This document shows positions 3,151-34,548 of a stretch of 39,745 bases of DNA, one piece after another. This DNA comes from a virus (lineage: Duplodnaviria; Heunggongvirae; Uroviricota; Caudoviricetes): the IMG/VR virus record IMGVR_UViG_2579778884_000013; one strand, 5' to 3'. Under the pieces are notes generated by a model that was given only the letters and a program-made list of their open reading frames with translations, did no database searches and was not told the DNA's origin. The position numbers and the translations under genes were made by a program. Positions within the stretch are counted from its first letter, which is position 1; every line of letters starts with the position of its first letter.

Positions 3151-5613
3151 TCAATTCCCTGTTAATTGCAAAACTTGCTCTTCCAGCTTTTTAACCCTGC
3201 GTCTCATCATCGCAGATTCCAGAATCAGAGCCTCTTCATAACGGATACCGTAACATTCACCAGCCTCGACGGCTTCGCGTACCAGAACCTTTGTCTGTAT
3301 AAGTGGGTAAACTCCTGCAGAATGCTCTTCTTCCGTCACATCCCTGTATTCTGCCGGGGTCTCATTCCACTTGTCATAACAGATAAATGCCAGTCGTGAC
3401 ACATCTATGCCTTCATTCTGAAATACACTGATAACATGCTGCGCAACTGCACCAAAGTGCCATCTTGCTCCGTCTTTACCTTTCACTTCGATCCTGTCAA
3501 GGTACTGGTATGAAACCCATTCCACTCTTTCCCATGCGTCCAGTATTTTCTCATCAATAACCTCTGGAGCAGTCTTGAAACGCGCATCGGACAGCACCGT
3601 AAACGCTGACTGGGTAAATCCCCCCGACCATGCACGACCAGCCAACCCAAGAGAATAAGTATTCGTTGTCGATGGTGTCATGGCTGAATCAGAAAACTGT
3701 ATATATTCTGAATTTCCAGTAGATATTCGAATATTTCCATTTATTAGCGACATAGTGCCTTTAGTATTATCACTATTGAATAATTTCAATTGCGAACTTA
3801 TACCGCCTCCCACAGCCAGAGATACATCGCCTTCAGCAAGCATTCTGAATTTATCTGCAGAAACAAGCGTCTGGTTAGCAAGGTTAAAATATTTAACCCA
3901 CCATTCAAAACGCCCTGACATAGTCCCAACGTACTGACCAAGCGCAGGGACGTGAACAACATTGCTATTTGTAGTGCCGTCTATACTGGAAATACCAGTC
4001 ACCGCTGATGCAGAACTCAGAATATTATTTCTGTCACCCGGATGTTTAATTTCAACAAAGTTCCTGATACACCCTTCCTCGAAGGTAACCACGCCGGAAG
4101 AACTATACATGGGGAATATTGACGCATAATTACTGCGTGCAGCATCTAAGAAACGAATGGTTGTAGATGTCTGCAGATCTCCTGATTCATTTTTCCCATC
4201 ACACCCAGTCATTAGAATATTACTGGCAATATTATTATTTCCCTGAACGGTGACTCCGTGCGCCTGCTTTGCGTCCGATTCAGAGTAATCAACCAGCACA
4301 TTCGAAATCAGGTTACCAGTCCCCTTGCCAACAACTACTGCGGCGTATTTTGGGTTGTTAGCCATTACACTGCTAATGATATTATTCGTTGGGGCAGTTT
4401 CCGTCTCAGTTCCATTGTAAACAACGTGCTTACACTCTTCACCAATAACATTGCTGACAATGTTATATTTTGCTGCTGTTTTAAGTTCCACTGCACCAAA
4501 CTGAGGATAATTTCTGGCTATCACACCATCAATTAGCGTATTTTGCGATGAATCAAAAAGCACACAACCTGCTTTTTTATTATTTGCGAACCCTAAATAC
4601 TCTCCTCTTATATCTCTAACAATGTAACCTGACGGAATACCATTATTCGGATAAGCGATCAAGCTAAATCCTGTTCCTCGCGTATTTGTAAATCTGATAT
4701 TTTTAACCGATACATCATGGCCACCTGAAAATGACACCTGGTGTCCCTGCACACTATCATCTGATTTATTTCCCATAATTGTTAGCGTACTAAGCATGCC
4801 ACCATCGGGCATGTTAAAAACCAGATGATTACCATCTCTGTCATACTGTTTTATCGTTCCCCCACCTGTTCCGTACAAGCCACAACGTGAAAGAGAAACT
4901 AAAGATGTATTGAATACCCCTTCCGGAACAAAAACACTGCTAAACGAATGTAATGATTTTGTAAAAGCATCCTTGTTATCATTTAAGATTCCATTTTGAG
5001 CTCCAAAATCCTTAATGCTGACACCATCACGCATCTTATCCTGGAACGTTCTGTATACCGCTCCAGAACCATACTGAATAAACCAACCAAAACCACCAAT
5101 AACTCCGGCGATTGCAGCATCGACATAATTACGCATTGAGCGATTATTTACAGCGTCCTGCTCAAGTGATGGATCGGCAAGGTTAGATATTCTGTTTTGC
5201 TTTGCATCGTAATATTTTGCAAGCAAAGATGGTTTCATCAATGCACGTCTGAACCACCCAAAACATCGCTGGATCAGCATCGTCAGGTAGTCAAATGCAT
5301 CCTCATGAACTTCGGGGAAAAATTTTCCCTGATTGCGAAGATCAGTCTCCTGCACCACATCAAGCACACGCTCTATCGTGATTCGCCAGCCAGCAGCAAG
5401 CGGCGACGGAAGAACCACTGCACCGCCACTATAAGTTCCCGCCCCTGTTACCGTATAACCAGCATCCAGCACTAGTTTTGTAACGTTACCGTTAAGGTCA
5501 GACACCTGAACAACCAGGTCGGATTTTTTGAAAATACGGAAGGTATACGGAAATGATGTCGTAACGCCGTTACCTGTGTATTCGTTGTGGTCAACTTCGG
5601 TTGAGACCGTCAT
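3151..5613 (-). CDS. Tailspike: T7 gp17-like N-terminal anchor, parallel beta-helix depolymerase-like centre, C-terminal intramolecular chaperone (peptidase S74-like)
   Basis: N-terminus YTGNGVTTSFPYTF...LVVQV resembles T7 tail-fibre N-domain; central repeats with N-x-I/V motifs; C-terminal LSDARFK (Ser about aa 675, nt about 3589-3591) then chaperone-like region; GGAG RBS. Confidence 0.85.
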   Translation of the reverse strand: MTVSTEVDHNEYTGNGVTTSFPYTFRIFKKSDLVVQVSDLNGNVTKLVLDAGYTVTGAGTYSGGAVVLPSPLAAGWRITIERVLDVVQETDLRNQGKFFPEVHEDAFDYLTMLIQRCFGWFRRALMKPSLLAKYYDAKQNRISNLADPSLEQDAVNNRSMRNYVDAAIAGVIGGFGWFIQYGSGAVYRTFQDKMRDGVSIKDFGAQNGILNDNKDAFTKSLHSFSSVFVPEGVFNTSLVSLSRCGLYGTGGGTIKQYDRDGNHLVFNMPDGGMLSTLTIMGNKSDDSVQGHQVSFSGGHDVSVKNIRFTNTRGTGFSLIAYPNNGIPSGYIVRDIRGEYLGFANNKKAGCVLFDSSQNTLIDGVIARNYPQFGAVELKTAAKYNIVSNVIGEECKHVVYNGTETETAPTNNIISSVMANNPKYAAVVVGKGTGNLISNVLVDYSESDAKQAHGVTVQGNNNIASNILMTGCDGKNESGDLQTSTTIRFLDAARSNYASIFPMYSSSGVVTFEEGCIRNFVEIKHPGDRNNILSSASAVTGISSIDGTTNSNVVHVPALGQYVGTMSGRFEWWVKYFNLANQTLVSADKFRMLAEGDVSLAVGGGISSQLKLFNSDNTKGTMSLINGNIRISTGNSEYIQFSDSAMTPSTTNTYSLGLAGRAWSGGFTQSAFTVLSDARFKTAPEVIDEKILDAWERVEWVSYQYLDRIEVKGKDGARWHFGAVAQHVISVFQNEGIDVSRLAFICYDKWNETPAEYRDVTEEEHSAGVYPLIQTKVLVREAVEAGECYGIRYEEALILESAMMRRRVKKLEEQVLQLTGN

Positions 5614-5717
5614 GTTAAATCTCCAGATAGTCGCAGCACCCGTTGCGCCGCATATCTGGTTATTCTATTACCAAAAAAACCATATATGGATAGAAAGACT
5701 GTGAATATGAATAGATA

Positions 5718-5732
5718 TTACCTTTCAGGTAA
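5718..5732. promoter_or_regulatory. Operator-like palindrome TTACC-N5-GGTAA (TTACCTTTCAGGTAA)
   Basis: Perfect 5-bp inverted half-sites with 5-bp spacer, in divergent intergenic region between tailspike and SOS-controlled small gene; same motif recurs at least 11 more times. Confidence 0.5.
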
Positions 5733-5771
5733 TTTGCAAAACGTGCTGGATAGCAAACAAATTATTTGCTA

Positions 5772-5787
5772 CTGTATAAATATACAG
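5772..5787. promoter_or_regulatory. LexA (SOS) box CTGT-N8-ACAG
   Basis: TACTGTATAAATATACAGTTA matches consensus TACTGT(AT)4ACAGTA; 8 nt upstream of ATG 5795 and 23 nt upstream of ATG 5810. Confidence 0.75.
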
Positions 5788-5809
5788 TTATTGCATGGAG
5801 AAGATTAAG

Positions 5810-6067
5810 ATGCAGCAGTATCACTATCCACTGGAAGAGGGATTTACCGAAAGGATTCACACGCCGGGAGGCGTCAGGTCACTGGTGGAGGGATCGCACT
5901 TGATGAAATTACTCCGGGATCTCGATAAGGATGGATTTAATGTCGATGGCCCACTTGCCGAACTGACTGCACTGATTAACTACGTCACCAGCTCACAGAT
6001 GTCTATGCAGGATCTGCAAACACATCTCGACTATTGTGCCGAACAATTACGAAAACAAACCAGATAA
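5810..6067 (+). CDS. Small SOS-controlled protein, paralog of C-terminal domain of adjacent AntA-like protein; candidate small antirepressor
   Basis: GGAG RBS 9 nt upstream of ATG 5810 (alternative ATG 5795 lacks RBS); aligns with C-terminus of 6385..7041 product (LMKLLRDLDKDGFNVDGPLAELT vs [24 protein letters not shown]; DLQTHLDY vs DIQTHAEY). Confidence 0.6.
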   Translation: MQQYHYPLEEGFTERIHTPGGVRSLVEGSHLMKLLRDLDKDGFNVDGPLAELTALINYVTSSQMSMQDLQTHLDYCAEQLRKQTR

Positions 6068-6098
6068 GGTTTGAAATTACCAAATGGAGTGCTTATAT

Positions 6099-6113
6099 TT
6101 ACCTTTGCGGTAA
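6099..6113. promoter_or_regulatory. Operator-like palindrome TTACC-N5-GGTAA (TTACCTTTGCGGTAA)
   Basis: Perfect half-sites; lies between small SOS gene and AntA-like gene. Confidence 0.45.
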
Positions 6114-6203
6114 ATTTACATCGCACTCCTCTTGTGCCATAGTAATCGGGCACTGGCAAAATCCAGTGCCGGGATTGGTCTCCCGGATTACTAAGTGGCG
6201 CAT

Positions 6204-6227
6204 ACCACGCCAGACGTGGTTTTTTTA
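6204..6227 (+). terminator. Rho-independent terminator after small SOS gene
   Basis: Stem ACCACG/CGTGGT with 5-nt loop followed by T7 run. Confidence 0.5.
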
Positions 6228-6384
6228 TGCGTATAGCACAGTCATGCCAGAATTATGGTGGGCTGAATGGGGGTCCGAAAGGACGCCGGTACCACTTAGG
6301 CCGGTAAGACCAACTCCGTTCAGTTCACCACCATCTGATTGGTCTCAGCGGTGGTGATGTAATTCGCTAAGTGGAGACGCCATC

Positions 6385-7041
6385 ATGAACGCTCAACTCA
6401 TCCCCGTATTCAACGGCACTATATCTAACGAAACAGCCCTACTTTGTAATGCCCGCGATCTGCACGCTTTTTTAGGTGTTAAAAAGGTGTTTGCAGCATG
6501 GATTACAAATCGCATATCAGAATACGAATTCATTGAAAATCAAGACTATATTTTGCTTTCCAATTTGGGAAAGCAAACATCTGGTAGAGGCGGCCACAAC
6601 CGCAAAGAGTACCACCTCACCCTTGATACAGCCAAAGAGCTGGCGATGGTCGAGCGTAACGAAAAAGGTCGCCAGGTGCGACGCTACTTCATTGAATGCG
6701 AGAAACGTTTAAGACAACAAGAAACAAAAGTGGAGAAGGTCTTGTCAGGCTTCATGCCCGCCATTATGGAGGCGATCAAGCTGGAAGACAAAAAAGAATA
6801 CAGTGCCCCACTGAAGCCCGGCTACCGCAGCCTGATTCACTCGCCGTCTGGTGTTCTCGGCCTGACGGAGAACTCACTGCTGATGAATCTGCTGAACCAG
6901 TTACAGGACGACGGGCACGACGTATCGGGCGCGGCGGCGGAGCTGACCACCATGTTCTGCTACATCGTTGGTGTGAGCAAATGCCTGCGTGATATCCAGA
7001 CGCACGCGGAGTACATCAACGACAAGGCAGGGTTCTTCTGA
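6385..7041 (+). CDS. AntA-family antirepressor-like protein with C-terminal domain shared with small SOS protein
   Basis: N-terminal region [32 protein letters not shown] resembles AntA/AntB antirepressor domain; GGAG RBS 8 nt upstream. Confidence 0.7.
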
Positions 7042-7085
7042 CGGGCGGCGGCACAGGGATGTGCCTTTAAATAATTCTGTACAGA

Positions 7086-7128
7086 TTGCAGACTGGGGGT
7101 GAATAGCGTACTATTACCTCAAGGGTAA
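7086..7128 (+). promoter_or_regulatory. Candidate sigma70 promoter (TTGCAG-17-TACTAT) with operator-like palindrome TTACCTCAAGGGTAA (7114-7128) at -10/+1
   Basis: -35/-10 hexamers with 17-bp spacer; palindrome starts at last base of -10; 60 nt upstream of 210-aa gene. Confidence 0.45.
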
Positions 7129-7187
7129 GAAAGCATTTTTAATCTTCCCTTCAAAACGCGTCCTGTAGCCAAACATGGGAGGACGAA

Positions 7188-7820
7188 ATGAGAACAAATA
7201 CAACAAGAAAAGCGATGCCATACATTATCCCAGAAGCAGATTTCGATAGAAAACTGAACATGTCTGAGAAGAACACTAGTCACACCGAAAGCTACTTAGC
7301 GAAAGGTGTGGTTGATTTCGTTCTTCCGGGATTCACAACACCTTATGGTTATCGCCTTGTAAAATCTTGTAATGGCGATCATTACAGAATGATTACTACC
7401 AGCGATACTCCAGAAACGGTGTATGCGGTTAAGTTAATCTTTCGGGAAGATATCGTCGAAGCCAAAAGAACATGTACGCAGATCATGGTATGGCGTACGC
7501 CTAATGTTATTCATGACCGTGCTGTTCATGGTTTGCCTCAGATTTTTTTTCAGTTCTTCCTAGAGCAATATGCGATCGTTGTATCTGATGAGCAACAAAC
7601 AATCGATGGGAGAAGATTCTGGGAAAGAATGATTTCTTGGGCTATAAACACCCCAGGATATAATGTATACGTTTCAGATGGCTCTGAAGAAGATAGACCT
7701 CTTAGCTTCATGACATCATGGGATGATTTCTATAGCCAGTGGGCTGATTTCTGTTGGGGCAGTGATAAAGATGTGCATACCCACAGACTACTGGTTATAA
7801 GCAAAGATAAACTGCATTAA
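7188..7820 (+). CDS. Hypothetical 210-aa cytoplasmic protein, no family recognised (orphan accessory gene)
   Basis: Strong GGGAGG RBS 5 nt upstream; own promoter/operator and terminator; appears AT-rich by eye relative to neighbours; no TM or signal peptide. Confidence 0.6.
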   Translation: MRTNTTRKAMPYIIPEADFDRKLNMSEKNTSHTESYLAKGVVDFVLPGFTTPYGYRLVKSCNGDHYRMITTSDTPETVYAVKLIFREDIVEAKRTCTQIMVWRTPNVIHDRAVHGLPQIFFQFFLEQYAIVVSDEQQTIDGRRFWERMISWAINTPGYNVYVSDGSEEDRPLSFMTSWDDFYSQWADFCWGSDKDVHTHRLLVISKDKLH

Positions 7821-7824
7821 TAGA

Positions 7825-7846
7825 AGCCCGCAGCGCGGGCTTTTTT
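7825..7846 (+). terminator. Rho-independent terminator after 210-aa gene
   Basis: GCCCGC-CAGC-GCGGGC stem-loop followed by TTTTTT. Confidence 0.65.
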
Positions 7847-7918
7847 GTGGACGAAACAAAAGTCAGTGCTACACTCATTGACGCCACATTGAGGTGGCTT
7901 ATAGATGGAAATTTCACA

Positions 7919-8080
7919 ATGAAAAAAGCATTTGCTGCACTGTTCGTTTTGTTGTCTCTGGTAGCTTCAACTCAGGCCTTTGCCGGTCGTTGTCAGCACG
8001 ACAGCGACACTGCTGCTGACGGCTCCCGCTGCGGTGGGCGTTCTGCGGATTCCCGCCCGGGTGGCGGTGGCATTCGTTAA
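7919..8080 (+). CDS. Possible small secreted peptide (53 aa) in GC-rich segment; alternatively a structured RNA
   Basis: Signal peptide MKKAFAALFVLLSLVASTQAFA then Gly/Arg/Cys-rich 31 aa; weak RBS; 9-bp hairpin at 7986-8008 inside ORF. Confidence 0.3.
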   Translation: MKKAFAALFVLLSLVASTQAFAGRCQHDSDTAADGSRCGGRSADSRPGGGGIR

Positions 8081-8102
8081 AAACAAGGCCGCGAAAGCGG
8101 CC
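8076..8102 (-). terminator. Rho-independent terminator of lipoprotein gene
   Basis: GGCCGC-GAAA-GCGGCC hairpin (8087-8102) followed on - strand by TTGTTTTTA; perfect palindrome GTGACATGTCAC (8104-8115) overlaps lipoprotein stop. Confidence 0.5.
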
Positions 8103-8111
8103 TGTGACATG

Positions 8112-8492
8112 TCACGCAACGCAATTATTACCGCGCCATGTAACATTTTTAATAATCTTATCAGCACCAAACTCAACGTAAACAGAGCAACTGAAATGGA
8201 GTGTATAACCGCCATCAGTTGTTGCGTATGTGTTTGAATATATAGTATTACCAATTAGATTAGACGTAGTATTATACGTTGTGGTTTGTGGTACGTTATA
8301 ACTACCAGAGCTTGAGTAAACATACACTCTGTTTCCATCTGGAGATGTAAGCTCTCCCTGAGGATACCCCCACTGCTGAACCATTGCGTCTATACTCTGC
8401 CCGCGCCACGTAAGCATATTTCTTTCAAACTGTGCAGCTGACTGGCATCCAACGAGAAGCATAAATCCAAAAATCAAAAATACTTTTCTCAT
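8112..8492 (-). CDS. Lipoprotein of unknown function (Ser/Thr/Asn/Tyr-rich mature domain); candidate lysogenic-conversion or superinfection-exclusion gene
   Basis: Signal peptide MRKVFLIFGFMLLVGC with lipobox LVGC; AGGGG RBS 5 nt upstream of ATG 8492; own terminator; encoded within accessory island between late genes. Confidence 0.6.
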   Translation of the reverse strand: MRKVFLIFGFMLLVGCQSAAQFERNMLTWRGQSIDAMVQQWGYPQGELTSPDGNRVYVYSSSGSYNVPQTTTYNTTSNLIGNTIYSNTYATTDGGYTLHFSCSVYVEFGADKIIKNVTWRGNNCVA

Positions 8493-8539
8493 AATTACCC
8501 CTATCATGGAAAAACAGCACCAATCCACAAATTAACTAG

Positions 8540-8728
8540 TTATTTTATTATTCTTCCGAACAATACAATTCCTAATACTACAAAGCCGAACCATGCCGCT
8601 GCACGCAACAGAGATTCCAATTGAAACCCATTTTTATCAAAATGTATGAATAGCATAAAAACGCTGCACATATTAGTACAATAAAAGTTATTTGAACCAT
8701 CATATCTCCTTTTATTGCGGAGTGACAT
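8540..8728 (-). CDS. Possible small membrane protein (62 aa)
   Basis: Start overlaps stop of upstream ejection-protein gene; C-terminal hydrophobic segment AAAWFGFVVLGIVLFG; AT-rich; weak support. Confidence 0.3.
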   Translation of the reverse strand: MSLRNKRRYDGSNNFYCTNMCSVFMLFIHFDKNGFQLESLLRAAAWFGFVVLGIVLFGRIIK

Positions 8729-20753: not shown

Positions 20754-20804
20754 CTTCTTTCTCCATTAGTGGGTCTGTTACGACCCACAGGTTAATAACA
20801 GGCG

Positions 20805-24787: not shown

Positions 24788-24802
24788 TTACCTTTCAGGT
24801 AA
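24788..24802. promoter_or_regulatory. Operator-like palindrome TTACC-N5-GGTAA (TTACCTTTCAGGTAA, identical to 5718 site)
   Basis: Lies between - strand late operon start and + strand tRNA unit; TTGACA hexamer at 24766-24771. Confidence 0.45.
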
Positions 24803-25287: not shown

Positions 25288-25364
25288 CAGCAGGACGCCA
25301 TTGCGATGACTTCATGCTGTAAACCAGTACAGCCACGGAAGGCATAACTCATTGCTTCCAGTTC

Positions 25365-27322: not shown

Positions 27323-27915
27323 TGATTACCATCCTGACGTTCTTTGAGTCGCTTCCTGGCTGCTGCTATGCGATCAGCAATTGTCACATTCACATTAACA
27401 TCCAGGCGTTCTTTGAATGCGTTGACGTCGACGTGCTTACCAATCAGTTCGAGGTTCTTCACCTTGTCAGGCCATTTAATTTTTTTGAGGATTGTCTCTA
27501 TCGAATCCTCGTTCATGTTCATGATGGTCGATGACAGATCAAAGCCACTAAGCGTAGTGCGCCAGATTTTCGGCCACTCACGGATTGGTTTAAGGCTCCC
27601 ATCGTCGTTGAGGATGTCGATCACGTCCATCTGGTCGATCTCCACCAGGCGCATGAGAACGTAATCAGCACTGACGCGCATTCGTTTGTTGCGCTCCTCC
27701 ATCAACTCGGCAATCCGTTTTTGAATGCGTTCATCGCGCATCATGACACTGGCTTTAACTGCCGCTGTATTTGGAGAGAATCCTGCGTTAATCGCTGCCT
27801 GAGTCTGGTTTTCAGGCGTTTTGATGTATGACTGGCAATAAGCCTCCTGCATTGCTGTTAGTGGCTTAAATTGCGTTGATTTGCGTTTATAGGTTTTAGG
27901 TTCAGCAGGCATCAT
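27319..27915 (-). CDS. Terminase small subunit
   Basis: Terminase_2-like N-terminus (LTAMQEAYCQSYIKTPENQTQAAINAGFS); start set to ATG 27915/27912 rather than TTG 27993. Confidence 0.75.
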   Translation of the reverse strand: MMPAEPKTYKRKSTQFKPLTAMQEAYCQSYIKTPENQTQAAINAGFSPNTAAVKASVMMRDERIQKRIAELMEERNKRMRVSADYVLMRLVEIDQMDVIDILNDDGSLKPIREWPKIWRTTLSGFDLSSTIMNMNEDSIETILKKIKWPDKVKNLELIGKHVDVNAFKERLDVNVNVTIADRIAAARKRLKERQDGNQ

Positions 27916-28033
27916 AACCACCGTGGTAATAGTTACCGTTGTGGTAATAGTACCATGCAAAATAAAGCCGCCATAGTTGGCGGCAGTATTCAAAACCCAT
28001 CAAATTCATCATGCATAATCTACTCGTGACATG

Positions 28034-31342: not shown

Positions 31343-31419
31343 TTACCCTTGAGGTAATTAAAAACCACATAAGACACGAAATCAATAGATTTTAGAATAT
31401 TTTATTACCCAACAGGTAA
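31343..31419. promoter_or_regulatory. Two operator-like palindromes TTACC-N5-GGTAA (31343-31357 and 31405-31419)
   Basis: TTACCCTTGAGGTAA overlaps RBS of DUF1064-like gene; TTACCCAACAGGTAA 48 nt upstream; both in intergenic gap after P-like gene. Confidence 0.45.
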
Positions 31420-33294: not shown

Positions 33295-33396
33295 GGTAAG
33301 CCCTGTTATTAGTATTGGGATTACGGTTATTTTGTGCTGACACAAAAAAAAGATCAACCAGATTTGGTTTTTTATTACCTTTGAGGTACGAATAGA

Positions 33397-33711: not shown

Positions 33712-33774
33712 TCACCCATAAGGTAACAAAAATCAAGGATAGTTACCTATGAGGTGCATTTACCTGTTGGGTAA
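33712..33774. promoter_or_regulatory. Tripartite operator cluster between cro-like and repressor genes
   Basis: Three 15-bp sites: TCACCCATAAGGTAA (33712-33726), TTACCTATGAGGTGC (33743-33757), TTACCTGTTGGGTAA (33760-33774). Confidence 0.6.
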
Positions 33775-33829: not shown

Positions 33830-34414
33830 ATGAAAAGTATCCAGGACGTCCGCAGGCAAAATCTCAACGACTTGATCGACCGTGAATTCAATGGTGTTCA
33901 GACGCGGATGGCAGAAAAACTTGGAACTCAGGCAAATCTGGTAAACCGCTGGGCTCTTGGAAAGAAGGTTATCGGCGACCAGGTTGCGCGAAAAATTGAA
34001 GCTGCCGCCAATAAACCCCGTAACTGGCTTGATATCGATCGCTCGCTTTCTCAGGAAGGTTTTCAGCCTGTCGGCCCAAGCGACATTGGTCAGCTGGCGG
34101 CTCACAACCTGGAACGCTGGATGAGCGAAAGCCGCGACCTTTCAACGCAGGGAAAACTACACCGCGCATCCGGCGTCGCCCAGGTGACAATCAGCCGCCT
34201 GTTAAACAATGAAGTCAGCGTTTCCATTTCCACCCTGGAGAATGTTGCATCCGCATTCGGGCGTCACGGCTATGAATTACTGATTCACCCGCACGACCCT
34301 GCGACTATCAACTATGATCGCTCGCGCTACGCATTGTTACCTGAAACAGAGAAGGCAAAGATCGAAAGTTACATTGAATTTGTCATCAACCAGAACGAAA
34401 AAAGAAAACAATAA
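33830..34414 (+). CDS. Prophage repressor with two XRE-type HTH domains and no S24 peptidase domain
   Basis: Two HTH-like segments (TRMAEKLGTQANLVNRWALGKK and HRASGVAQVTISRLLNNEVSVS); no Ala-Gly ... Ser ... Lys autocleavage module; divergent from cro-like gene across operators. Confidence 0.7.
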   Translation: MKSIQDVRRQNLNDLIDREFNGVQTRMAEKLGTQANLVNRWALGKKVIGDQVARKIEAAANKPRNWLDIDRSLSQEGFQPVGPSDIGQLAAHNLERWMSESRDLSTQGKLHRASGVAQVTISRLLNNEVSVSISTLENVASAFGRHGYELLIHPHDPATINYDRSRYALLPETEKAKIESYIEFVINQNEKRKQ

Positions 34415-34471: not shown

Positions 34472-34548
34472 TTACCTTATGGGTAATTTTTTTAACTCAT
34501 ATCTATTGACATCAAACCAGATACGCATAATTATTACCTCAACGGTAA
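34472..34548 (+). promoter_or_regulatory. Early-left promoter region with two operator-like palindromes flanking a TTGACA -35 hexamer
   Basis: TTACCTTATGGGTAA (34472-34486), TTGACA at 34506-34511, -10-like CATAAT/AATTAT around 34526-34534, TTACCTCAACGGTAA (34534-34548) at -10/+1. Confidence 0.5.

Follow-up and report, generated by a model that had tools for sequence, protein, structure and literature searches.

A candidate two-tier antirepression locus in an Escherichia coli uetakevirus prophage: a predicted LexA-controlled antirepressor and its paralogous fusion behind an IsrK/C4 RNA cassette

The immI operon of phages P1 and P7, as Citron and Schuster are said to have described it in 1990, consists of the c4 antisense RNA, icd and ant. 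In Salmonella phage SPC32H, self-cleavage of LexA leads to the production of the antirepressor Ant, which inhibits a repressor that is not cleaved in the SOS response (Kim and Ryu, 2013, as cited in PMC7380047). In Gifsy-1, the short IsrK RNA activates the translation of AnrP in trans, and AnrP induces the prophage (PMC4825925). The present study concerns a locus at positions 5718-7041 of a viral DNA of 39,745 nucleotides (nt; IMG/VR record IMGVR_UViG_2579778884_000013), the whole of which is referred to here as the window and represents an essentially complete E. coli uetakevirus (an epsilon15/phiV10-like podovirus, present as a prophage). The locus holds a small antirepressor gene, ant, behind a LexA box, and a second gene, ant2, behind an IsrK/C4 RNA cassette, and we consider it likely to be a two-tier antirepression switch in which an SOS-triggered Ant1 and an RNA-gated Ant2 act on one repressor, Rep.

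The system closest to the first tier is the SPC32H Ant/Rep pair (PDB 5D4Z, 5D50). Ant1, the product of ant, matches chain 5D50_E ("Anti-repressor protein") over residues 2-84 (E=1.6e-47) and is 89.2% identical to the SPC32H ant product by tblastn. Judged by this homology, Ant1 is an ortholog of SPC32H Ant, a crystallised LexA-controlled antirepressor, and it is taken as an antirepressor because of its closeness to this experimentally characterised protein. Rep matches 5D50_A ("Repressor") over its full length (E=3.5e-42) at an identity of only 41%, and is by the same reasoning the ortholog of SPC32H Rep; Rep has diverged far more than Ant between the two phages. A Pfam scan placed an HTH_3 domain at residues 106-147 of Rep and a weak YdaS-like helix-turn-helix (HTH) domain at residues 21-61, and found no S24 (Peptidase_S24) autocleavage domain. 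The window thus combines an Ant homolog of approximately 86 amino acids (aa), a predicted non-cleavable Rep with two HTH-type domains and a LexA box, as does SPC32H, in which the box lies at the equivalent position upstream of ant. In both phages, ant is divergent from the tailspike gene, the locus occupies the same place in an epsilon15-like podovirus genome, and TTACC-N5-GGTAA palindromes are scattered over the genome. From these homologies we infer that Ant1 binds Rep and frees it from DNA. The two phages differ in what follows: SPC32H ant is directly followed by a terminator and convergent structural genes, and its system has one tier.

The LexA box lies 20 nt upstream of the ant start codon and agrees with TACTG(TA)5CAGTA at 18 of 20 positions (2 mismatches). 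No other site in the window comes within 3 mismatches of this LexA consensus, and 100 shuffled sequences contained no such site. The box is kept in place in an alignment of ant upstream regions from 8 phages, including SPC32H, the box of which reads CTGTATGTTTATACAG at the equivalent place, and its position is conserved in Escherichia, Salmonella and Enterobacter phages. A one-base change in the LexA box of SPC32N reportedly made Ant constitutive in the work of Kim and Ryu in 2013. The ant gene has a Shine-Dalgarno sequence (SD), GGAG, 9 nt ahead of its ATG at 5810. The bare CTGT-N8-ACAG core occurs 3 times in the window against 0.56 expected; the two further copies (20775-20790 and 25317-25332) have GC-rich centres, lie inside long minus-strand open reading frames (ORFs) and are probably due to chance. 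In the Klebsiella phages (L007 1320-1420 and L009 1941-2040), the box upstream of ant1 is a degenerate ATGT-N8-ACAG that has lost the conserved C, and LexA control of ant1 may be weaker there.

These results agree with the original prediction, which had been made from the DNA letters and had placed a near-consensus LexA box ahead of a small ORF, read the downstream 6385-7041 protein as AntA-like with a C-terminal part paralogous to the small protein, and described the repressor as having two HTH domains and no S24 domain. Its comparison with coliphage 186 and the Gifsy phages holds for the control logic, since Tum, GfoA and GftA are likewise LexA-repressed small proteins that inactivate a non-cleavable repressor, but not for descent: the closest system is the orthologous Ant/Rep pair of SPC32H. 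No relationship to Tum, GfoA or GftA surfaced in the small-protein library searches, which gave only SPC32H Ant (5D50_E in the PDB) and included no direct comparison with these proteins.

The intergenic region between ant and ant2 had been predicted to contain an operator-like site (6099-6113) and a terminator (6204-6227), which were proposed to reflect two layers of control. Both elements are present and two layers are indeed discernible, namely the LexA box on ant and an RNA cassette on ant2; however, this description was incomplete because the region carries a full IsrK/C4 antisense-RNA cassette. In an Rfam scan of 5500-8600, isrK (RF01394) scored 67.7 bits against a gathering score of 50 over model positions 1-77, and C4 (RF01695, clan CL00128) scored 61.2 bits against 45 with the full model matched, compared with 66-78 bits in 6 relatives. 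The c4-a1b1 model (RF03163) reached 39.9 bits at 6137-6189, just below its gathering score of 46.7. A terminator scan placed the stem of the IsrK terminator at 6204-6220 with a T-run to 6227. The a' and b' segments of C4 are exact 7- and 8-nt complements of a1 and b1 upstream and of a2 and b2 downstream, and b2 overlaps the SD of ant2 (GGAG, 6373-6376; ATG at 6385).

In every one of the 7 related phages with a second antirepressor gene (phiv142-3, phiV10, TL-2011b, ZX5, Tyrion and two Klebsiella phages), isrK and C4 lie ahead of this gene as a pair, while SPC32H has neither the isrK/C4 pair nor a second antirepressor gene. Across 7 aligned regions (among them the window, Tyrion, KpST512, phiV10, TL-2011b, ZX5 and KpST11), the segments show three-way compensatory change: a1/a'/a2 read TTGGTCT/AGACCAA/TTGGTCT in the window, Tyrion and KpST512 and TTGGCGT/ACGCCAA/TTGGCGT in phiV10, TL-2011b, ZX5 and KpST11, and b1/b'/b2 take four forms (GTGG, AAAGG, CAAAGG and ACGG types). 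Since the MAFFT alignment places the b regions one column apart in different specificity classes, pairing was judged by direct duplex energies, which sum to -20 to -22 kcal/mol for cognate and -7 to -17 kcal/mol for non-cognate combinations and define four specificity classes, with that of the window being unique among the 7. On this basis, gating of ant2 translation by C4 and IsrK appears very likely, and the second gene would then not be simply SOS-controlled. An isrK and C4 pair upstream of a Bro-N gene was noted earlier in APSE phages (APSE paper), and Gifsy-1 lysogens contain large amounts of IsrK and of the C4-like STnc1160 (PMC7067206). A second RNA family seems to be associated with antirepressor-type genes: in Stx2a_WGPS6 (L016 1365-1453), an antirepressor gene that shares the AntA domain is preceded by an sRNA-Xcc1 RNA (RF02221, 69 bits) rather than by isrK/C4, and sRNA-Xcc1 upstream of an ORF6N gene is also found in the APSE paper.

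The TTACC-N5-GGTAA palindromes connect this cassette to the remainder of the genome. Allowing up to 1 mismatch, 14 copies occur in the window against 0.59 expected and 18 in SPC32H against 0.74 expected. In both genomes, clusters of them occupy the interval from the cro-like gene to rep as well as the surroundings of the early promoter on the far side of rep, and single copies lie ahead of other operons, most of which are preceded by one. Based on this enrichment and placement, the palindrome is probably the Rep operator, and the set resembles a Rep regulon that extends over the whole genome, as with P1 C1. Two copies abut the putative promoters of the locus. The half-sites of that at 5718-5732 are invariant across 8 phages, and those of that at 6099-6113 are invariant with a variable 5-nt spacer in 7 phages. 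The promoter of the IsrK-like RNA, found by a promoter scan, is invariant in 7 phages, and the end of its -10 element lies 7 nt ahead of position 1 of the Rfam isrK model. The isrK/C4 cassettes of APSE, Yersinia and Hafnia phages have other promoters, without TTACC-N5-GGTAA upstream.

The second tier resembles P1 and P7 immI in its C4-family RNA, the a' and b' segments of which face a1/b1 upstream and a2/b2 over a downstream ribosome-binding site, in the gating of an antirepressor gene with a/b specificity that varies between related phages, and, with regard to P1, in a promoter with an operator for the main repressor, the operators of which span the genome. It differs from immI in that the window has no icd-like ORF and b2 covers the antirepressor's own SD, and from P1 in that the antirepressor is unrelated to P1 Ant1/2 and a terminator between a1b1 and c4 yields an IsrK-like short RNA. 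N15 also combines two antirepressor inputs, AntC of the LexA regulon and the immA locus with antA/antB, which is controlled by a small processed RNA; we know of no paralogy between its two antirepressors. The isrK-orf45-anrP region of Gifsy-1 has the same order of an IsrK-family RNA, a C4-like processed RNA (STnc1160) and an antirepressor-like gene (PMC4825925), produces a short RNA and a read-through mRNA from one promoter, and is accompanied in Gifsy phages by a separate LexA-controlled antirepressor. In contrast to Gifsy-1, the orf45 frame is broken in the window, which leaves no translational coupling, no link to AntQ is evident, and the C-terminal domain of Ant2 is paralogous to the SOS-controlled Ant of the same phage, which has not been reported for AnrP.

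Ant2 consists of an N-terminal AntA domain (Pfam, E=4e-26; 91.8 bits against a gathering score of 27) and a C-terminal domain that resembles Ant1. In BLASTP, the two proteins are 42% identical over 83 aa (E=4e-17), residues 137-213 of Ant2 match 5D50_E (E=8e-14), and residues 135-216 match phrog_450 (E=6e-36). The C-terminal 82 or so residues of Ant2 are, by these alignments, a true paralog of Ant1. The N-terminal 110 or so residues are approximately 95% identical to Ant of Stx2a_WGPS6, whereas the C-termini of these two proteins are unrelated; by its sequence, ant2 is a chimera that joins an AntA domain common to Stx phages to the Ant-like C-terminal domain of uetakeviruses. This C-terminal domain is 74-98% identical in Escherichia and Enterobacter phages and 53% identical in Klebsiella phages. 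In relatives, Bro-N replaces AntA ahead of the same domain, and gp42 of TL-2011b (L004 7277-8221) has P22_AR_N ahead of an Ant2 C-terminal domain with 89% identity. An exhaustive profile search of 1.84 billion representatives with the Ant domain returned only 60 clusters, in which the domain either stands alone, in proteins of approximately 82-95 aa, or is fused C-terminally to AntA, Bro-N, Phage_pRha or ORF6N; the search was more informative than a word-index search, the 24 matches of which were mostly fragmentary. The standalone and fused clades have 17 invariant positions in common. The Ant-like domain is, on this comparative evidence, a portable C-terminal module found behind AntA, Bro-N, P22_AR_N, Rha or ORF6N.

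Several minor observations concern this domain. TL-2011b and HEMP4 each have three Ant-domain genes, encoding a small Ant, a Bro-N-Ant2 and either a P22_AR_N-Ant2 or an AntA-Ant2. Two 95-aa Ant2 proteins that had appeared to be standalone (P0009 and P0010) are in fact N-terminally truncated fusions in a Klebsiella/Raoultella island and do not form a separate lineage. P0009 (L010 3652-4433, in a Klebsiella/Raoultella chromosomal island) retains only the linker and the Ant domain; its gene immediately follows an AlpA-like one, lacks an upstream isrK/C4 pair and has a TTACC-N5-GGTAA site 131 bp downstream. This could be what is left of a prophage, or a satellite in which only the repressor-binding half was kept.

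On balance, we favour the view that Ant2 acts on Rep through its C-terminal domain. This view is based on the 42% identity to Ant1, the 17 invariant positions, the co-occurrence of Ant and Rep, with a Rep of the window type encoded in each of the 32 phage records that have an Ant domain, and on the effect of ORF4 of ZX5, which carries Bro-N and an Ant2-type C-terminal domain 91% identical to that of the window. When ZX5 ORF4 was overexpressed, lysogens fell in titre from 1e9 to 1e6 and transcription of the repressor dropped by 75% (PMC9782041); the repressors of phiV10 and ZX5 each share 99.5% identity with the Rep of the window.

The mechanism that we propose begins with LexA, which would silence ant from its box in tier 1 (5718-6067). 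Upon DNA damage, LexA would cleave itself and the 85-aa Ant would be produced; homology to PDB 5D50 suggests that a tetramer of Ant would capture two Rep dimers and that the non-cleavable Rep tetramer would be lifted off its operators, thereby allowing lytic growth. We hold this chain from LexA through Ant1 to Rep with strong confidence. Prophages of the phiV10 species are induced by a DNA-damaging microcin (bioRxiv 10.64898/2026.05.26.727859). In tier 2 (6099-7041), the operator-abutting promoter would start an IsrK-like RNA that mostly stops at its own terminator, and read-through transcripts would contain the C4-type antisense RNA followed by ant2. The a' and b' segments of C4 would pair with a2 and b2 and mask the ribosome-binding site of ant2, leaving Ant2 untranslated, until the a1/b1 RNA, in its IsrK-like short form, competes for C4 and relieves the block. 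Ant2 would then strike the same Rep through the domain that is paralogous to Ant1, adding a second anti-immunity input when the phage infects or superinfects a cell and/or reinforcing the switch once Rep begins to fall. The terminator scan found no plus-strand terminator from the ant1 stop codon (6067) to the IsrK-like element in the window and most relatives, and SOS-driven ant1 transcripts may for this reason end at 6227, carry a1/b1 and titrate C4, which would couple the tiers. The binding of LexA and Rep to these sites and the sign of Rep action at both promoters are likewise inferred.

A number of points weigh against this proposal. The ant promoter was not placed confidently: the best candidate, TTGCAA-17-ACAAAT, has a weak -10 element, and aligns with TTGCAT-17-TGATAT in SPC32H. 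The palindromes next to the two antirepressor promoters have their centres near -44 relative to the likely start and border the -35 element on its upstream side, a position that fits activation by Rep as well as it fits repression. In the window, a TGA at the fourth codon interrupts the orf45/icd-like ORF over C4 (ATG at 6255; 6255-6266), while the C4-overlapping small ORF is intact with 37 codons in phiV10, TL-2011b and ZX5, in which it is annotated as "ash family protein"; control must therefore act directly on the ant2 SD rather than through translational coupling, and the Gifsy-1 mechanism is not literally transferable. Folding of 6150-6400 at minimum free energy gives an unusually stable structure (z=-4.6) that pairs a1/b1 with a'/b' in cis, which makes the sign of regulation on the long transcript uncertain. 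The SPC32H switch runs on Ant1 alone, and hence Ant2 is dispensable for the basic switch. Furthermore, ORF4 in the ZX5 experiment was tagged with glutathione S-transferase and overexpressed during infection, a design that did not resolve the acting domain (PMC9782041), and an AlphaFold2 model of Ant2 from a 14-sequence alignment was judged unusable (predicted local distance difference test score, 46; predicted template modelling score, 0.31).

Among the other explanations, a chance AT-rich palindrome in place of a LexA box, with ant outside SOS regulation, is scarcely credible, since no shuffled sequence out of 100 reached even 17/20 against the observed 18/20 and the box holds its position in phages of three host genera; the degenerate Klebsiella boxes are what would favour it. 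A distinctly possible, if not probable, alternative is that tier 2 is an anti-immunity device in the style of P1/P22 immI that serves only at entry, with a transient burst of Ant2 before C4 builds up that decides between lysis and lysogeny or overcomes a resident homoimmune prophage, and with no role in the SOS response. The C4 match and the a/b targets make the architecture homologous to P1 immI, and the C4 classes of the window and phiV10 differ despite 99.5% identical Reps, which recalls the heteroimmunity of P1 and P7. In addition, other genes are inserted between tiers 1 and 2 in TL-2011b and KpST512, indicating that the tiers are separable modules. The missing terminator after ant1 argues otherwise, because SOS transcripts should enter the IsrK-like element, as does the contribution of the IsrK locus to Gifsy-1 prophage induction (PMC4825925). 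This explanation is nevertheless compatible with the two-tier switch and partly contained in it. As a separate observation, the insertion in Klebsiella phage ST512-KPC3phi13.3 (L007 1760-2218) consists of two small ORFs between ant1 and isrK/C4 that are HicB/HicA-like toxin-antitoxin genes by appearance.

Two further alternatives concern the target of Ant2. The C-terminal domain may only oligomerise, as a self-tetramer or by co-assembly with Ant1, while the AntA or Bro-N domain acts on DNA or another target, in which case Ant2 could strengthen or poison Ant1 instead of binding Rep. SPC32H Ant is a tetramer according to PMC9638917, one C-terminal domain behind five unrelated N-domains is a pattern often seen with tetramerisation modules, and the conservation of the N-domain with Stx-phage antirepressors (approximately 95%) suggests an activity of its own. 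We regard this as unlikely because the invariant positions include many polar residues (Y4, H17, S29, D41, E51, Y58, T71 and H72) and not just a hydrophobic core, Ant domains strictly co-occur with the window's type of Rep, and ZX5 ORF4, which shares only the C-terminal domain, shows antirepressor behaviour against a near-identical Rep. It is very unlikely that Ant2 is instead a cross-talk antirepressor that reaches other resident prophages (lambdoid, Stx) through AntA: the identity of its N-domain to Stx-phage antirepressors and the trans-acting antirepressor cross-talk described in Salmonella (Lemire et al., 2011, cited by PMC7380047) would suit this role, but relatives swap AntA for Bro-N, P22_AR_N or Rha, such that the part that tracks the lineage is the Ant-like domain, and the C-terminus of the Stx homolog, where specificity is expected to reside, differs. 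A bolder extension of the two-tier switch is speculative and, in our estimation, somewhat improbable: a portable Rep-capturing Ant module would stand behind swappable N-domains, with Ant1 and Ant2 wired feed-forward through the a1/b1 decoy at the end of the SOS-induced ant1 mRNA, which would titrate C4 and free the fused Ant2 for translation, and with the loss of Rep altering the operator-bearing promoter. If correct, a brief SOS pulse would be converted into irreversible lytic commitment.

With respect to novelty, the SOS tier is, by sequence comparison, already known, being a new ortholog of the SPC32H system, while the second tier assembles known parts (P1 immI and Gifsy-1 isrK-anrP) in an undescribed combination with a paralogous fusion. 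The LexA-controlled small Ant is still unannotated: Ant1 was assigned to phrog_450, which is labelled "unknown function" in PHROGs, matched no Pfam or NCBIfam family, and is named "hypothetical protein" in RefSeq E. coli genomes. The ZX5 study, the one experimental paper on the switch of an E. coli uetakevirus, mentions neither the LexA box, the small Ant nor the RNAs (PMC9782041). Large antirepressors with five different N-domains share only the Ant-like C-terminal domain, the portability of which offers a testable answer to the question of which half of Bro-N/AntA-type antirepressors recognises the repressor. The locus would provide a compact natural case in which control at the protein level (LexA) and at the RNA level (C4/IsrK) is brought to bear on a single repressor, for which SPC32H is a natural one-tier comparator. 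The coordinates of the features are summarized in Table 1.

Table 1. Positions in the window of the genes, RNA elements and candidate regulatory sites discussed in the text
Feature	Position	Strand	Description
Tailspike gene	3151-5613	-	Divergent from ant
Palindrome TTACCTTTCAGGTAA	5718-5732		Probable Rep operator; ends 1 nt before the -35-like TTGCAA (5734-5739)
LexA box (predicted)	5770-5789		20-mer TACTGTATAAATATACAGTT; core CTGT-N8-ACAG, CTGTATAAATATACAG, at 5772-5787
ant (Ant1), 85 aa	5810-6067	+	SPC32H-type antirepressor by homology; SD GGAG at 5797-5800
Palindrome TTACCTTTGCGGTAA	6099-6113		Probable Rep operator; ends 1 nt before the -35 of the IsrK-like promoter
Predicted IsrK-like promoter	6115-6143	+	TTTACA-17-CATAGT with upstream TG; start near 6150
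IsrK-like small RNA	6150-6227	+	Rfam RF01394 at 6150-6226; carries a1 and b1; ends in an intrinsic terminator
a1	6175-6181		TTGGTCT
b1	6191-6198		CTAAGTGG
C4-type antisense RNA	6251-6335	+	Rfam RF01695
b'	6292-6299		CCACTTAG; hairpin loop of C4
a'	6307-6313		AGACCAA; single-stranded junction of C4
a2	6339-6345		TTGGTCT
b2	6367-6374		CTAAGTGG
ant2, 218 aa	6385-7041	+	AntA N-domain and Ant-like C-terminal domain
AntA N-domain of Ant2	6448-6660		aa 22-92; Pfam PF08346
Ant-like C-terminal domain of Ant2	6787-7032		aa ~135-216
210-aa ORF	7188-7820		phrog_1349, unknown function
Further palindromes	7114-7128, 24788-24802, 27915-27947, 31343-31419, 33375-33389		
Operator-like palindromes	33712-33726 and 33760-33774		Between the cro-like gene and rep
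rep	33830-34414	+	SPC32H-type repressor by homology; presumed target of both antirepressors
Operator-like palindromes	34472-34486 and 34534-34548		Flank TTGACA of a leftward-early-type promoter downstream of rep

The locus sits between the tailspike gene and convergent virion genes. Over 5600-7128, the DNA shares 98.4% identity with Escherichia phage phiv142-3, and at least 80% of the region is present in 79 of 5426 complete E. coli genomes (approximately 1.5%). The identities of Rep, Ant1 and the Ant2 C-terminal domain to those of the window are approximately 99, 97 and 90-98% in E. coli phages, 79, 84 and 74% in Tyrion, and 45, 60-64 and 53% in Klebsiella phages; in Salmonella, the first two are 41 and 89% and the third domain is absent.

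The similarity to phiv142-3 ends exactly at the palindrome at 7114-7128. The 210-aa ORF that follows had no Pfam, NCBIfam or PADLOC match, and Ant2 and two neighbouring ORFs had none in PADLOC. The arrangement of 7114-7820 suggests a mosaic junction at an operator site with an accessory gene under the same control. Farther downstream, the minus strand carries a 138-aa ORF (8112-8528) without a family match; its product opens with what resembles a lipoprotein signal (…LLVGCQS…), and the ORF may represent a moron or an exclusion gene.

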